DNA of 64,000 nucleotides from Escherichia coli O127:H6 str. E2348/69 (GTDB taxonomy: Bacteria; Pseudomonadota; Gammaproteobacteria; Enterobacterales; Enterobacteriaceae). The stretch is taken from assembly GCF_000026545.1 (NCBI RefSeq), contig NC_011601.1; one strand, given 5' to 3'. Both the position numbers and the translations under genes were made by a program. Below the pieces are notes generated by a model. It was not told the DNA's origin. It made no database searches and saw only the letters and a list, made by a program, of their open reading frames with translations. Positions 1,259-8,576 of the stretch are shown in pieces; within the stretch, counting starts at the first letter, position 1; the number at the start of each line of letters is the position of its first letter.

Positions 1259-2359
1259 ATGATTCCTGAAATTGAACTTAGAGATATTCAGCCAAAGGGA
1301 AGCAGTGATGTCCCGTCGTCTTCGCACATTCAGACTGGATTACCGATTCCAAAAACAGTGCGGGTTCAGTTCTTTAGCCCTGACGAATGGGAGTCGTTTA
1401 CAGAGGAATGGGCAAGTTATCTCAAAAATGAATATGTTGCAGCCAGACGCTTTGGGGGTTCTGGTGATCTTGGGATAGATATTGCTGGTTTCTGTTCTGA
1501 CAAGGGATTCGAGGCGGTATGGGATAATTATCAATGCAAGCGCTATGGACATCCTCTTCGGCCTGGTGATATCTGGGTTGAAATTGGCAAGATTATTTAT
1601 TACTCATATCTTGGCAAATATACCCCTCCACGAAAGCATTTTTTTGTTTGCTCTCAGGGAATAGGAACCAGTCTTGAACAGTTGTTGAACAAGCCTACTG
1701 AGTTGAAAGAAAAATCGATTGAAAACTGGGATAATTACTGTCTCAAGGGTATCACTTCTACTGCTGAAATTCCGTTGACTGGTGCATTAAGAGCTTACCT
1801 CGACGCATTTGATTTCACTATTTTCTCATCAAAATCGATAGTTGAGCTTATCGAAATTCATGCCAGAACGGGTTTTCACTCGGTTCGCTTTGGCGGCGGG
1901 CTGCCGTATCGGCCTAATCCATCTTCTCCACCAACCATACCGACGGAAAATGAAAGCCGATACATTCGCCAGTTGCTTGATGCCTATGGAGACCATTTAG
2001 GCACAAATTTACCAGACGCTGCTTCGTTGGCGTCACACAATCAATTTCGTAGTGACTATCTTCGCCAGCGCGAACGTTTTTATCACGCAGAATCGCTAAA
2101 GAATTTTGCGCGAGATACTGTTCCTGCGGGGACATTTGATGCCTTACAGGATGAAATCTACCATGGCGTAATTGATGTCTGCGAAGATTATCACTTGAGT
2201 GGATTTGCGAGAATGAAAGAAACCATGAAGCACGCTACCACTATCGCTGTCACATCAAATCCGTTGGTCACTTCAATTAAAACACAAGATCGCCAAGGTA
2301 TATGCCATCAGTTGGCTAATGACGATCGCCTGATTTGGGTGCCAGATAATGAATCATAA
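1259..2359 (+). CDS. Mrr-like PD-(D/E)xK nuclease-domain protein; candidate effector (LmuA-like) of a Lamassu/ABC-3C-type defence operon
   Basis: 366-aa ORF; N-terminal motif RRFGGSGDLGIDIAG...WDNYQCKRY matches the Mrr-type restriction endonuclease catalytic signature (D..D...QxK); AGGGA 6 nt upstream of ATG; stop overlaps start of next ORF. Confidence 0.6.
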   Translation: MIPEIELRDIQPKGSSDVPSSSHIQTGLPIPKTVRVQFFSPDEWESFTEEWASYLKNEYVAARRFGGSGDLGIDIAGFCSDKGFEAVWDNYQCKRYGHPLRPGDIWVEIGKIIYYSYLGKYTPPRKHFFVCSQGIGTSLEQLLNKPTELKEKSIENWDNYCLKGITSTAEIPLTGALRAYLDAFDFTIFSSKSIVELIEIHARTGFHSVRFGGGLPYRPNPSSPPTIPTENESRYIRQLLDAYGDHLGTNLPDAASLASHNQFRSDYLRQRERFYHAESLKNFARDTVPAGTFDALQDEIYHGVIDVCEDYHLSGFARMKETMKHATTIAVTSNPLVTSIKTQDRQGICHQLANDDRLIWVPDNES

Positions 2360-2834
2360 AAAACATCCAGAGCCCTTTAATAGTCCTTTCGAAACCGGGA
2401 TACGTTCGCTTGCGATTCTGGTTGCAGCCTTCCCTGAGTCTTATGATTTGCAACGGCTAGTTGAAATGGATTATCTCGTTGTGCATTCCGGTGATGCTGA
2501 TGGTCCTGACAGTTTGCATGCCCCATTACCGATGCGTGCGGGCGAACTACTGGTCAGGCATGGTTTGATTGAAAAGGGATTGATGCTCATGATGAGCAGG
2601 GGGCTCGTCCAACGTGTTTCAGCCAGTGATGGGTTCAACTATCTTGCTGGGGAGCTCGCTGCACCTTTTATCTCTTCTCTTACGACTGAATATTCATGTC
2701 GACTAAAAGTTTGTGCTGAATGGGTAACTGGTGAATTTAAAGACCTGCCTACGCAGGAAATACGGAACATTACGCATCGCTTGTTTCAGCAGTGGTCGAG
2801 TCAGTTCCAGAGTATTCAGTCATCTGGAGGATGA
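2349..2834 (+). CDS. small protein, candidate middle component (LmuC-like) of the three-gene operon
   Basis: 161-aa ORF; ATG at 2349 overlaps the upstream stop (2357-2359) and its TGA (2832-2834) overlaps ATGATGATG of the next gene, implying translational coupling; no recognisable catalytic motif. Confidence 0.5.
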   Translation: MNHKKHPEPFNSPFETGIRSLAILVAAFPESYDLQRLVEMDYLVVHSGDADGPDSLHAPLPMRAGELLVRHGLIEKGLMLMMSRGLVQRVSASDGFNYLAGELAAPFISSLTTEYSCRLKVCAEWVTGEFKDLPTQEIRNITHRLFQQWSSQFQSIQSSGG

Positions 2835-4663
2835 TGATGAGCGATAATTATTTGCAGCTTAGAAAAATTTTGTTCCATGGCCAAACCAAAGAATCCGTTT
2901 TATCTTTTTCATCCGGTATTAATGTGATTTGTGGGGCTTCCGATACCGGCAAATCATTCCTGGCAGAAACTCTGGATTTTATGCTGGGTGGAACGGAGCT
3001 CAGGGAAATTACAGAATTAGCTGCTTATGCAGAAATAACTCTCGATTTTGTCACCAGTGATGGTCGAAGTTGGCGTCTTCAACGTGCAGTGACTGGCGGG
3101 AATTTCAAGTTAACTGATTTGGATGAGCCAGACTCGGAACCTATCGTGCTAAAACAGAAGTACGTTCGGGGTAAAACGGATAATATCTCCAGTTTTTTAC
3201 TTGAACAGATTGGCTTGCCGAATAAGGAGATTTTGAAAAGTAGTACCAAAGCGACGACTCAGGGACTGAGCTTCCGCAATCTGGCGAGACTTGCTCTGGT
3301 TCAGGAAGATGAAATTCAGCATAAAGGCTCTCCCTTTTGGAGTGGGCAGTTCACAACCAAAACCGCTGAACTGGCAACGGTCAAACTGCTGCTGACAGGG
3401 GGTGATGATTCTGCGGTCGTTGCAGTGAGTGGCGATGGTGTAAGCAATACGTCTCAGATTATGTTGATTGATGAGTTAATTGCGGAGTTATCCATTGAAA
3501 TTAAGGATATGGGAGAAGAGCGTGATGATCTGGCTTCCCAACTGACCCGCCTTGAACAATCTATTGAGAGTCAACGTGAATCGCTCACTGCCGCACAGCA
3601 GCAACTAGAGCAGTTATTACAACAAAGGGGACTGGCCTTTGATGAGCGAAACAAAATCCAGGGACGACTGGATGAGATATCCGAACTACTTGCCAGATTT
3701 ACACTTCTGAATGAGCATTATGTTATAGATATCAACCGTCTGAAATCCATTCAGGAGTGTGGCTTGCTCTTCATGCATATTGACGTGATTCCTTGCCCTC
3801 ATTGTGGAGCTAGTCCAGCTCACCAACACCTGGAACAAATATGTGATGGAGATGTAGATTCAATCATTACTTCAGCAACTGCCGAGATGCAAAAGACCGA
3901 ACGACTTTTGGCAGAGCTGAATTGTACAGTCAGAGATCTTGTCAGCGAAAAGCAACGCCTTGAGAAGCAATACATTGTCCATGAAGAGGATTATTTGCGT
4001 CTTGATAAAGCCATTCGGGAAACTATTGCTCCTGAAGTTGACAGTTTCAGGCACTCGTATGCTGAACTGATCGACGAACGGGCCAGTGTCCAGCAATCTA
4101 TTGATTTGTTCTCAAGATTGGACCGGCTGGAAAGCAGGAAAGTGGCATTACAAAGCGATACTCCGGTAAAAAAAGAAAAAAGTGCGGTGCAAAACGGCAT
4201 TCCAGAGTCTGTTGCCCATAGTCTGTCGTTAAAAATCTCCTCTATATTAAAAGACTGGCATTTCCCCGGAGCATGCCAGGTATTTTTTGACAAAGATACT
4301 TCGGATTTTGTAATTGATGGAAAACCTCGCGGTAGCCGGGGAAAGGGGCTACGAGCAATTACCCATGCGGCAGTCAGTGTCGGACTACTTGAGTTTTGCC
4401 AAGAAAATGGGCTATCGCATCCGGGATTCCTAGTTCTGGATTCCCCTCTACTGGCTTACTACAAACCAGAAGGTGAAGATGATGTAGCTTTGCAAGGTAC
4501 TGACTTGAAAGAGAAATTCTATGATTATCTTGTGAAGCACCATAATGAAGATAGTCAGATCCTTATTATAGAAAATCCGCATCCACCGCAAAGCATGAAT
4601 AAACAGATTACTATGACGGTATTCACTGGTAATCCTAGGGTTGGCCGTTTCGGATTGCTTTGA
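2831..4663 (+). CDS. SMC/Rad50-like ABC ATPase with central coiled-coil and CxxC hook (LmuB-like)
   Basis: N-terminal Walker A GASDTGKS (nt 2933-2956); long heptad-rich, Q/E/L-rich central region containing CPHC (nt 3794-3805); C-terminal hhhhD motif FLVLDSP (nt 4427-4447); GGAGG at 2826-2830; start chosen among ATG 2831/2834/2837 (track ORF begins 2792). Confidence 0.65.
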   Translation: MMMSDNYLQLRKILFHGQTKESVLSFSSGINVICGASDTGKSFLAETLDFMLGGTELREITELAAYAEITLDFVTSDGRSWRLQRAVTGGNFKLTDLDEPDSEPIVLKQKYVRGKTDNISSFLLEQIGLPNKEILKSSTKATTQGLSFRNLARLALVQEDEIQHKGSPFWSGQFTTKTAELATVKLLLTGGDDSAVVAVSGDGVSNTSQIMLIDELIAELSIEIKDMGEERDDLASQLTRLEQSIESQRESLTAAQQQLEQLLQQRGLAFDERNKIQGRLDEISELLARFTLLNEHYVIDINRLKSIQECGLLFMHIDVIPCPHCGASPAHQHLEQICDGDVDSIITSATAEMQKTERLLAELNCTVRDLVSEKQRLEKQYIVHEEDYLRLDKAIRETIAPEVDSFRHSYAELIDERASVQQSIDLFSRLDRLESRKVALQSDTPVKKEKSAVQNGIPESVAHSLSLKISSILKDWHFPGACQVFFDKDTSDFVIDGKPRGSRGKGLRAITHAAVSVGLLEFCQENGLSHPGFLVLDSPLLAYYKPEGEDDVALQGTDLKEKFYDYLVKHHNEDSQILIIENPHPPQSMNKQITMTVFTGNPRVGRFGLL

Positions 4664-4830
4664 TTAGGAGGATGGTTTGAATGGAAACACAATGCACAAT
4701 GTCGTGCAGTTGTTGCTGCGCACAATGGTCGTTTATGGACGAAGTTATCACTTCAGTCAAAAGAATTTTAAGTAGCTAAGCTGCGCGTTGGATAGGTAAT
4801 GAAATGACATAAACAGATATTATAGCGACC

Positions 4831-5292
4831 GTGGCATGTGCCATATCAGGGGTCGCCGCGCTATTTTCAGGAATAGCATTATGTCAATCAGCAAAAGCAA
4901 ACCGCAGAGCAAATCAGGTATCAGAGCGAGGCTTGCGTATTGATTTAGTTGATTGTCGTATGAATATACGGAATGCGTTCACGTTAATTATGGATGAGTT
5001 CGAGGCGCAGAGATACGGGCCAGCAGATAACTATATTATTCAGGCAAAAATCACCTTCCGTGATGCGGGTATATTTTTTGGTAATGACGTAAGTGAATTT
5101 CTTACCGAGTTAATGAGACAAATTAGCACCTACAGCGAGATATTTAAAACTAGGACAATGGGCCGTCTTATTTTTGACCCTCAAGGAGATGTTAGAGAGG
5201 AAGAGCAACGATTAGAACAAATAAGGCTATGGGTGATAGCACAGCGTGGGCCCGGCAATGACATGTTCGACAGAATCATGAGTGTTTCATGA
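4831..5292 (+). CDS. hypothetical protein, N-terminal hydrophobic segment; start uncertain (GTG at 4831 or internal ATG)
   Basis: 153-aa ORF with AT-rich rare codons (ata, aga, tta), followed immediately by a stem-loop plus T-tract; no motif recognised. Confidence 0.35.
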   Translation: MACAISGVAALFSGIALCQSAKANRRANQVSERGLRIDLVDCRMNIRNAFTLIMDEFEAQRYGPADNYIIQAKITFRDAGIFFGNDVSEFLTELMRQISTYSEIFKTRTMGRLIFDPQGDVREEEQRLEQIRLWVIAQRGPGNDMFDRIMSVS

Positions 5293-5302
5293 TACACGCT
5301 AG

Positions 5303-5332
5303 ACCCGGCCTCAGTGCCGGGTGTTTAATTTT
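5303..5332 (+). terminator. Rho-independent terminator-like hairpin downstream of the 153-aa ORF
   Basis: acccggc-ctcagt-gccgggt stem-loop followed by gtttaatttt. Confidence 0.45.
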
Positions 5333-5569
5333 CCTAACTACAACCGTCGCCTCACCGTCCCCCAAACGAATCGGAACAGCTGTTCCATGAACAGTCAGAT
5401 GGTGTGGCCCAAATTAGTTGCCCACTACACTTCAAGACTATAAATTCTGGAGTAACAGTCGGTTAGCTTCCTTCATGGGCCAGTCATGGCGAGTTGTTAA
5501 GTATGGCTGTTTGCGATAAGCTTTAGATACTCTTTAGCGTTGGACGGTTACGTCTAGTCGGGTGATTAG

Positions 5570-6607
<1,038 letters not shown>

Positions 6608-6681
6608 AAACCAAGGGAGAATCCAGTCGTTGGCGGTTCATGGATTGTTCTGCTCATTAACAACGACCAAAACCCCATATC

Positions 6682-8004
6682 TTACTTAATACCGTATTCT
6701 CGGCTTAACCGACCGTGCAACCTCAACACATTGGTTTCAACTGCCGTCACCACGTTCTCCGGAAAATCTGTCGGTAATGAAGTCTTCACGTTATCCAGTG
6801 CTGCCGGAATCATTCTGGCAAAGTCACTCAGGATTTCATGCATCTGCACTTCCGGGAATTTCAGCACCTTTGCTGTCGCCAGAAAATGTCGCGGATAAAT
6901 TTTATCGATTGCCGTTTTTTTGCCTTTGGATGCGTTAAGCCCCATTGCCAGTTTGAGATCGCTGATGTGTATTCCCGTACCGCCAAGGACCGGAAATGCC
7001 GAAATGATGTCATAAAATGGTGTGAGCCGATAACTGCCGCCAGCCTGAATAAATACGGAGAAGTTTTTTGCATGGCCATCCGTTGCGCCAATCAACCACT
7101 GGAAGACCTGAAACTTCATAAAATCATAGCGATCTTTCAGCGCCTCGCTGGAGCCCATCAAAAAAGCCATAATTTGCGCGATACCGGGGCCTCCATCTGA
7201 TTCATATTTCACCGATGAAGGTAAACCGAATGTCTGGCACATATCCTCCTGTGGCAAGCGAAGTAAAACCGTTCGCTCAGTATTCCAACGCCTGTCAAAA
7301 CGTTCGACCGCTAACGCGCGCACCCTTCCCGCTTTAATGATTTCTGCGTCCGGAACATTCAACCCGAGTTCTTTCGCCAGCAGCAAACAGTAATACTCAT
7401 TATCAACGCTTTGGCTAAGATCGAGCGTCGCATTGGGCTGTCTGATTTCGCCAATCGGCAATTTGATAATGTGCGTCGTTGGCGTTATTCCCTTCGGAAT
7501 GCACCAGTCATTGCCTATTCTGAGCAGCGCAGTCTTCTCCTGTGCGCCAGCAACCGAGATGCGAAAGTCATTTTCTTCTCTAATCATGCCTAACGGGATA
7601 TCTGCTTTATAAGCCGTTAATACTTCTTCAAGTCTGGCTTCAGTAAGCTTTTCCCATGCCATTATCGGACACGTTACGGTTTCATCTTCGGGGATTAACG
7701 TCACGGCACCAACGCTGTCTCGCCCTATTTCTGACAATAAATCAAACGGTTGTCTGGATTTAGCATGATAACGTTTAACGATCCGGTCACGTACAATCGG
7801 GCTATCGGGTAACAGGTTATCGAAGAAGTTAAATACGGCATCAGAGGTGATATTCCCCCTCTGCAATGGCAGCGAAAGTGACAACGGTCTGGCATAACGG
7901 CTGGCTAACCACTCAGGTGCATACTTAAAGGTGTGCGCGCCGTTGGCTAACTTCGTTAACTCGCCTACCCGCTGGTTGTTCATCCAAGTGACTAGTTTAG
8001 GCAT
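6682..8004 (-). CDS. hipA: HipA serine/threonine kinase toxin
   Basis: 440-aa protein beginning MPKLVTWMNNQRVGELTKLANGAHTF, near-identical to remembered E. coli HipA; start overlaps hipB stop. Confidence 0.95.
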   Translation of the reverse strand: MPKLVTWMNNQRVGELTKLANGAHTFKYAPEWLASRYARPLSLSLPLQRGNITSDAVFNFFDNLLPDSPIVRDRIVKRYHAKSRQPFDLLSEIGRDSVGAVTLIPEDETVTCPIMAWEKLTEARLEEVLTAYKADIPLGMIREENDFRISVAGAQEKTALLRIGNDWCIPKGITPTTHIIKLPIGEIRQPNATLDLSQSVDNEYYCLLLAKELGLNVPDAEIIKAGRVRALAVERFDRRWNTERTVLLRLPQEDMCQTFGLPSSVKYESDGGPGIAQIMAFLMGSSEALKDRYDFMKFQVFQWLIGATDGHAKNFSVFIQAGGSYRLTPFYDIISAFPVLGGTGIHISDLKLAMGLNASKGKKTAIDKIYPRHFLATAKVLKFPEVQMHEILSDFARMIPAALDNVKTSLPTDFPENVVTAVETNVLRLHGRLSREYGIK

Positions 8005-8270
8005 CACCACTCCAGATCTTGCTGTTCTGTTGCTTCTGGCGAGGCATTTTTTGCGTCGCATAGCGTCATTGAGAGTTCAAGCGACTGTAAAATCTTAAAA
8101 AATGTCGTGAGCGAGGTATTGTCAGGATTGTTTTCGAAATTGGAAATTGTCGCCTGCTTAATGCCGATTTTTTTCGCCAACTCGCTCTGCGTCCAGCCGT
8201 TTTGCTGGCGAACCAGTTTCATTGCATTCGCCAATTGCATTGGGCTATAGATCTTCTGAAAGCTCATCAT
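8004..8270 (-). CDS. hipB: HipB antitoxin, HTH DNA-binding protein
   Basis: 88-aa protein MMSFQKIYSP...QSELAKKIGIKQATISNFEN matching HipB. Confidence 0.95.
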   Translation of the reverse strand: MMSFQKIYSPMQLANAMKLVRQQNGWTQSELAKKIGIKQATISNFENNPDNTSLTTFFKILQSLELSMTLCDAKNASPEATEQQDLEW

Positions 8271-8291
8271 GTCATACGTCCACAGCAAATT

Positions 8292-8404
8292 TATCCGCTT
8301 AAGGGGATATTATCAGTTTTATCCTTAGTGAGGATAAAGTCAATCTGGAAACACATCTTATCCGCTCTACGGGATAAACGCTGCGATATCCGCGATCGCG
8401 GATA
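8292..8404 (-). promoter_or_regulatory. hipBA promoter/operator region with four HipB operator palindromes
   Basis: TATCC-N8-GGATA-type palindromes at 8292-8309, 8320-8336 (imperfect), 8359-8376 and 8387-8404, directly upstream of hipB. Confidence 0.7.
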
Positions 8405-8576
8405 AAAAGGAGGATTTAAAAAAGCACATCCTAATGCGGTGGCTTCTTTGACTACCGGAATCTGTAATCTTAATGACCTGGCCGCGTAAAAAACGTCTGT
8501 TCAATGGGGTGATGCCGTGAGGCGAATTTATCAGTTTTATCTACAATTGGGGTAACGCGCTGACGGGAGTAAAAAA

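Follow-up and report, generated by a model that had tools for sequence, protein, structure and literature searches.

The published structures and reconstitutions of Lamassu (ABC-3C) contain LmuA, LmuB and LmuC only (PMC12663957). The window analysed here, a stretch of 64,000 nucleotides from Escherichia coli O127:H6 str. E2348/69 (NC_011601.1), carries a complete operon of this kind, with LmuB, the LmuC middle component and an LmuA effector bearing an ABC-3C C-terminal domain. Directly behind LmuB, the original prediction had pointed to a strong Shine-Dalgarno (SD) sequence followed by a short Cys-rich frame (hereafter mini-ORF), which was read as a small metal-binding or regulatory peptide, as a coupling or leader device for the next ORF, or as chance. 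The features of this region are as follows, L009 and L015 being two comparison loci with a more diverged LmuB.

1259–2359, plus strand: LmuA, Lamassu/ABC-3C effector with a CTD6 domain (Pfam PF20282 CTD6, E = 2.7e-48; PADLOC LmuA, E = 2e-133), named “ABC-three component system protein” in RefSeq.
2349–2834, plus strand: LmuC, ABC-3C middle component 2 (Pfam PF20288 MC2, E = 1.7e-47; PADLOC LmuC, E = 1.9e-54).
2837–4663, plus strand: LmuB, SMC/Rad50-like ATPase (PADLOC LmuB, E = 6.4e-176; Pfam AAA_23; RefSeq CDS), stop TGA at 4661–4663.
4666–4671, plus strand: perfect SD-like AGGAGG (Klebsiella alleles have AGGTGG and L009 has AGATGG, and L015 lacks an SD).
4672–4680, plus strand: ATG GTT TGA, aligned with ATG GTC TGA in L009 and with ATG GTT ATA, in the frame of a PFIN-family gene, in L015.
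4681–4779, plus strand: mini-ORF of 32 codons, ATG at 4681 and TAA at 4777–4779, encoding METQCTMSCSCCCAQWSFMDEVITSVKRILSS with 5 Cys.

Reading and translation of the sequence confirmed the AGGAGG, the ATG-GTT-TGA and the 32-codon ATG frame at these positions, and the location right after the ATPase gene is correct, since the LmuB ORF ends with the TGA at 4661–4663. The hexamer lies 3 nt past the LmuB stop, and the ATG of the mini-ORF is found 9 nt beyond the end of the hexamer, which is a good spacing, and 18 nt after LmuB. A second frame of 32 codons, opening with TTG (4677–4775), stands behind the same AGGAGG. The peptide METQCTMSCSCCCAQWSFMDEVITSVKRILSS had been credited with seven cysteines. 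This count was wrong: five are present, at residues 5, 9, 11, 12 and 13, i.e. five Cys across nine residues, and they include a run of three consecutive codons, TGT TGC TGC. The mini-ORF ends 25 nt before the ATG of the next gene, ORF4, and it is not annotated as a CDS in any RefSeq or GenBank record carrying the segment. Within it, CACAATG occurs three times (4688–4732) and GCACAATGTCGT / GCACAATGGTCGT form an imperfect direct repeat of 12–13 nt, 26 nt apart, perhaps a short stretch duplicated as the DNA decayed. The threefold CACAATG / GCACAATG(G)TCGT repeat was not retained as a real element: the repeat search was silent and the pattern is within chance.

AGGAGG occurs at 11 sites on both strands of the window, compared to about 27 expected from base composition. 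Two of these 11 sites have an ATG 4–10 nt downstream, where roughly one is expected by chance, and the one in front of the mini-ORF is the only such SD-ATG site in the window that leads at least 30 codons. None of the other AGGAGG sites lies ahead of a long ORF. Among the 295 ATG ORFs of 25–60 codons in the six frames, 10 encode at least five Cys and 3 have at least four Cys within nine residues; clusters comparable to that of the mini-ORF are present in two further small ORFs of the window that carry no annotation. Together, these results show that a Cys-rich frame behind an SD is unusual yet within chance for a 64-kb window.

No credible family was obtained for the mini-ORF peptide in Pfam, NCBIfam or PADLOC; PADLOC pVip matches (E about 0.05) were dismissed as low-complexity Cys matches. 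Exact matches were found neither for the four peptide alleles, looked up among about 15 billion proteins, nor for the peptide of the alternative frame, and an exhaustive phmmer search returned only two called allelic variants. The RNA of the 156-nt region folds no better than its shuffles (z = −0.28). In the tail after LmuB, no Rfam family was detected, leader RNAs included, and the promoter scan gave 0 promoter-like sites. The terminator search found no strong candidate before 5303, with weak 5–6-bp hairpins only inside the mini-ORF.

Conservation was evaluated in Lamassu loci with a diverged LmuB, which is 90, 89, 81, 81, 78, 76, 76, 74 and about 66% identical to that of the window. The mini-ORF is absent from all Lamassu loci examined in this 90–66% range and is thus not co-conserved with LmuACB. 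Lack of the frame in homologous islands had been named in the original prediction as the outcome that speaks against it, and this outcome was observed. In the diverged loci, LmuB is followed by AbiGi, an Mrr-like gene, an unknown 140-aa gene, opposite-strand genes, a PFIN-family gene, DUF2971 genes or a 65–66-aa gene. In L009 (LmuB 90%), only the first 25 nt past the stop are common with the window, at 84% identity; AGATGG stands in place of the SD and ATT in place of the ATG.

The 65–66-aa protein (MPYIQVEKDGLLYEAEYF...NGMTE.AAA.TALRNLIR...) is encoded behind LmuB, with an SD of its own, in L005 (4353–4550), L019 (4065–4265) and L015 (4903–5100). These loci are of E. coli Nissle-type, Xenorhabdus bovienii and metagenomic origin, with an LmuB 66–78% identical to that of the window. 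Unlike the mini-ORF, this protein is conserved across genera. It belongs to no Pfam or NCBIfam family, and its gene could be a real accessory gene of its Lamassu clade.

The sequence that follows LmuB in L015 (LmuB 78%) bears on the origin of the segment. Two blocks of the window were aligned with it:

4664–4705, plus strand: 5' block of the putative remnant, homologous to the L009 tail and to the beginning of the PFIN-family gene in L015.
4770–4793, plus strand: candidate 3' block of the same remnant, 18 of 24 nt identical to L015 (P 0.04–0.12 when taken alone).

In L015, the positions equivalent to the start of the segment read ATGGTTATAATGGATAAA... and form the beginning of a called 118-aa gene, whose product contains a PFIN domain (PF22162, plasmid fertility-inhibition factor; E = 2e-9). 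This PFIN-family gene (4345–4900) is itself frameshifted and the 118-aa product ends early. Its C-terminal third (…GFTNGIARTIWLLANG…) runs in another frame, and the repaired frame continues ...VTELRVGFTNGIARTIWLLANG, in agreement with Serratia. Intact PFIN-family homologues of about 180 aa are found on Serratia and Pantoea plasmids, where they are not beside Lamassu. Their N-terminus is conserved, demonstrating that the shared 5' block is genuine coding sequence. The L009 tail also matches the L015 protein, in frame over 36 positions (MV*IETLVLEQYG...EWGDLYYHY / MVIMDKSILAQYG...EFGDLFFHF; E = 1e-5 in a small search space).

At the DNA level, the window matches L015 by blastn with 72.9% identity over 70 nt (E = 2e-8), aligned to about +42, and shuffles of the local alignment of window positions +1 to +45 gave P about 0.0005 with L015 and with L009 each. 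These data show that the 5' block is homologous to both loci. Compared with L009 and L015, a net 5 nt are missing from the window, past codon 4 of the mini-ORF. The ancestral GCA CAA TAT GGT (A Q Y G) corresponds to GCA CAA TGT CGT in the window, where the mini-ORF, shifted by one base, reads ..TGC ACA ATG TCG TGC..; as a consequence of the deletion, ancestral codons are read out of frame and give the first two Cys codons of the mini-ORF.

Further downstream, window positions 4772–4792 encode VAKLRVG in a frame that is not that of the mini-ORF, the corresponding residues being VTELRVG in the repaired L015 frame and ALRLCFG in Serratia. Homology of the 3' block (4770–4793) to the PFIN-family gene appears moderately supported, as does that of the middle of the tail (P about 0.01–0.1). 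When a collinear alignment with long deletions allowed was applied to the whole tail, the score was 28 vs 14.7 ± 2.8 (0/1000 shuffles); without the first 45 nt it was 19 vs 11.9 ± 2.6 (P about 0.011), and the reverse-complement control remained at the null level (score 10). For individual blocks of the tail beyond the first 45 nt, P ranges from 0.01 to 0.3. Collinear DNA homology at the same genomic position, as expected of a PF22162 pseudogene remnant, was thus found, with strong support over the 5' block and moderate support over the remainder of the tail, from two informative relatives only (L009 and L015) and a frameshifted copy in the latter. When homologues of the L015 PFIN-like protein were sought by a word-based search, only the protein itself came back, tblastn of this protein against the window tail gave nothing significant, and the mini-ORF peptide has no PFIN profile match in Pfam. 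The proposal that the stop of the mini-ORF aligns with the ancestral stop codon was dropped because the L015 “stop” itself arises by frameshift.

On its 3' side, the segment adjoins a distinct module:

4793–4803, plus strand: junction and start of the ORF4/retron module, where homology to the ORF4 copy of a Lelliottia plasmid begins (TAGGTAATGAAATG).
4804–5292, plus strand: ORF4, hypothetical protein of 162 aa when intact, with a TAA at codon 3 (4810–4812) in E2348/69; RefSeq annotates only 4990–5292.
5303–5332, plus strand: strongest terminator-like hairpin downstream (7 pairs, 6 G-C, T-rich tail next).

ORF4 is a separable module, as Lelliottia and Enterobacter plasmids have it without the mini-ORF. 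It has a hydrophobic N-terminus and is also found without Lamassu, no family was detected for it in Pfam or NCBIfam, and hardly any two records annotate the same start. Salmonella/Citrobacter-type copies of ORF4 are intact. Other copies are each broken in a different way: E2348/69 by the codon-3 TAA, Klebsiella by 2 bp inserted after the ATG, K. quasipneumoniae by a TAG inside the frame, Lelliottia by the loss of 1 bp, and the E. coli IncF plasmids by IS1, which cuts the gene at about 5063. The hairpin at 5303–5332 is likely to be the end of any transcript carrying the mini-ORF. It is followed by a degraded retron (5529–6061) composed of an msr RNA (5529–5593; Rfam RF00170, 79.9 bits) and a truncated reverse-transcriptase ORF. 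The E2348/69 retron is devoid of PtuA/PtuB effectors, and an intact retron Ec78-type RT-PtuA-PtuB is present at the corresponding position in related Klebsiella plasmids and Salmonella-type contigs. The defence island is flanked by an intact hipA/hipB toxin-antitoxin pair (6682–8330, minus strand) and by integrase fragments.

The mini-ORF was found only in copies at least 97% identical, from E. coli, Salmonella-type contigs, Klebsiella plasmids and metagenomes. The E. coli records with the segment number 67 and are mostly IncF plasmids. A genome-collection scan using LmuB returned one locus only, identical to the window. The DNA pattern of the LmuB-end/tail junction gave four matches in metagenomes, all of them known alleles, and two more that are chance matches without LmuB; none was found in the viral contigs scanned. 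Gene finders call the mini-ORF only as a 42-aa stop-loss allele (TAA to AAA) and as a 64-aa rearranged allele. The latter is a fusion; its contig agrees with the window through 4747 (after codon 22) and carries unrelated DNA beyond. In the metagenome contig L031 (window 2058–4747 plus 6576–8420), LmuA is truncated beside a Tn3-family transposase fragment, and ahead of hipA some 610 nt of unrelated sequence take the place of window positions 4748 to about 6575, which contain ORF4 and the retron remnant.

Among close copies, the SD changes from AGGAGG to AGGTGG in Klebsiella, and the pA130-TEM allele combines E2V with a 1-nt insertion that causes a +1 frameshift. The full set further comprises C12Y, carried by K. 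quasipneumoniae and metagenome alleles, R28G and S32N, together with the stop loss and the breakpoint after codon 22. Every difference is thus nonsynonymous or disruptive, with 0 synonymous and 4 nonsynonymous changes, vs 27 synonymous and 16 nonsynonymous codon changes in LmuB for the same genome pairs. Observing 4 nonsynonymous changes out of 4 has a probability of 0.47 under neutrality and of 0.019 given an LmuB-like constraint. The tail has diverged by 2.1%, vs 2.0% for the broken ORF4. Most E. coli and Salmonella copies keep the frame unbroken, an observation of little weight because these copies are nearly identical. Among the near-identical copies, neither a synonymous excess nor a consistently kept start, stop and frame, as left by purifying selection, was observed. 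No invariant Cys pattern was found either, given C12Y and homologues that are near-identical copies only.

If the mini-ORF encoded a working Cys-rich peptide with a metal-binding, redox or regulatory role, made from the Lamassu transcript as a fourth component, this would agree with the perfect SD at 9-nt spacing straight after LmuB, with the five Cys in nine residues and with the lack of a strong terminator before 5303. An AGGAGG at this ideal distance from an ATG, 18 nt behind a translated gene, is a strong initiation context and weighs against an accidental frame. We regard such a peptide as very unlikely, as the frame is missing from every examined Lamassu locus with LmuB at or below 90%, C12Y loses one Cys, the SD is weakened in Klebsiella, and frameshifted, stop-loss and truncated alleles exist. 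Moreover, synonymous changes are 0 vs 4 nonsynonymous, the peptide matches no family, comparable Cys clusters recur in two further small ORFs of the window without annotation, and Lamassu was reconstituted from three proteins (PMC12663957). With a frame that is not conserved and changes that are all nonsynonymous or disruptive, the metal-binding or regulatory peptide first proposed is not supported. The position of the mini-ORF between LmuB and ORF4, 25 nt before the ORF4 ATG, could alternatively point to a leader, a translational-coupling device or a Cys-sensing attenuator controlling ORF4. Regulatory leader peptides (trp, his, leu) contain runs of the sensed amino acid, and the three consecutive Cys codons resemble such runs. 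However, ORF4 is a separate module present in Lelliottia/Enterobacter plasmids without the mini-ORF, with homology from about 4793, and it is broken in E2348/69, K. pneumoniae, K. quasipneumoniae and Lelliottia and IS1-cut in E. coli plasmids; both facts argue against a coupling device. In addition, the mini-ORF is followed by no terminator or antiterminator (z = −0.28, weak 5–6-bp hairpins inside it) and no Rfam leader was detected. Control of ORF4 by the mini-ORF is hardly credible on these grounds, and the coupling or leader device of the original prediction is not supported either.

The mini-ORF could also be a pure chance ORF in plain spacer without any pseudogene history, its likeness to L009 and L015 reflecting a short conserved Lamassu 3' flank. 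Chance statistics permit this, and the PFIN similarity is weak past the first 45 nt or so (P 0.01–0.3 for individual blocks). A plain spacer is nevertheless unlikely: the 5' block is coding sequence in the L015, Serratia and Pantoea homologues, and those of Serratia and Pantoea are not beside Lamassu. Furthermore, the L009 tail matches the L015 protein in frame over 36 positions, and the best-matching blocks are collinear, the 3' block reading VAKLRVG vs VTELRVG. Chance was the closest of the three readings initially offered; more exactly, the frame is best described as an accident inside a decayed gene remnant with an inherited start codon.

The explanation that we favour, and hold to be probable, is that 4664–4793 is a collapsed, 3'-truncated PFIN-family remnant, within which the mini-ORF opens by accident at the surviving ancestral ATG. 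The ancestral Lamassu cassette would have borne a PFIN-family gene (about 180 aa, about 540 nt) starting 18 nt past the LmuB stop. In the E. coli/Salmonella/Klebsiella lineage, internal deletions would have shrunk this gene to about 130 nt (4664–4793), and the remnant would have been cut at about 4793, where ORF4 and the retron Ec78-type module were joined. The ancestral ATG would persist at 4681, and the net 5-nt deletion past codon 4 would shift the frame. The AGGAGG itself is presumably a recent T-to-A change from AGGTGG; this polarity is the most parsimonious one because T is found both in Klebsiella (AGGTGG) and in the outgroup L009 (AGATGG).

The E. coli allele of the mini-ORF may be translated at some level, which is made plausible by AGGAGG-N9-ATG and by the lack of a strong terminator before 5303. 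Any peptide produced would probably be without function, and nothing in the sequences compared seems to indicate selection on it. It could be argued that the E. coli/Salmonella allele, after recently acquiring its perfect SD through one T-to-A change, is translated from the lmuACB transcript and yields a very young, lineage-restricted Cys-rich micropeptide born from pseudogene wreckage, i.e. a proto-gene in a defence island that might weakly affect Lamassu or redox/metal handling; we see only a very slim chance of this. The mini-ORF is real sequence but most likely neither a functional feature nor a conserved peptide gene. A textbook-looking SD, ATG and Cys-rich frame beside a defence operon would thus be the debris of a lost neighbour, a mainly negative result, and this frame should be neither annotated nor followed up as an accessory peptide of Lamassu. 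The case also illustrates that real small genes can be told from such accidents by comparing relatives of the flanking gene at graded distances, the 65–66-aa gene behind LmuB being conserved in the same comparison.

Compared with Lamassu (ABC-3C) systems, the mini-ORF begins 18 nt past LmuB in an operon with all three genes, but these are three-protein systems (PMC12663957) and it is not conserved alongside them. With the PFIN family (PF22162), the locus shares the first 45 nt or so past LmuB and probably 4770–4793, which are DNA-homologous to the L015 member; unlike that family, it has no intact domain, about 130 of about 540 nt are left, and the peptide similarity ends after four residues. 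The trpL, hisL and leuL attenuators are also short ORFs with a codon run for one residue, as TGT TGC TGC in the mini-ORF, but the latter has neither terminator/antiterminator nor conservation, follows a gene and precedes no biosynthetic operon. Finally, like junction debris of defence islands, it belongs to a short orphan segment between two mobile modules, here Lamassu on one side and ORF4 with the retron on the other, which keeps the start of a former gene and displays frameshifting deletions and neutral-looking substitutions. It differs from such debris by its perfect SD at ideal spacing so that, unlike most of it, the mini-ORF may be translated.
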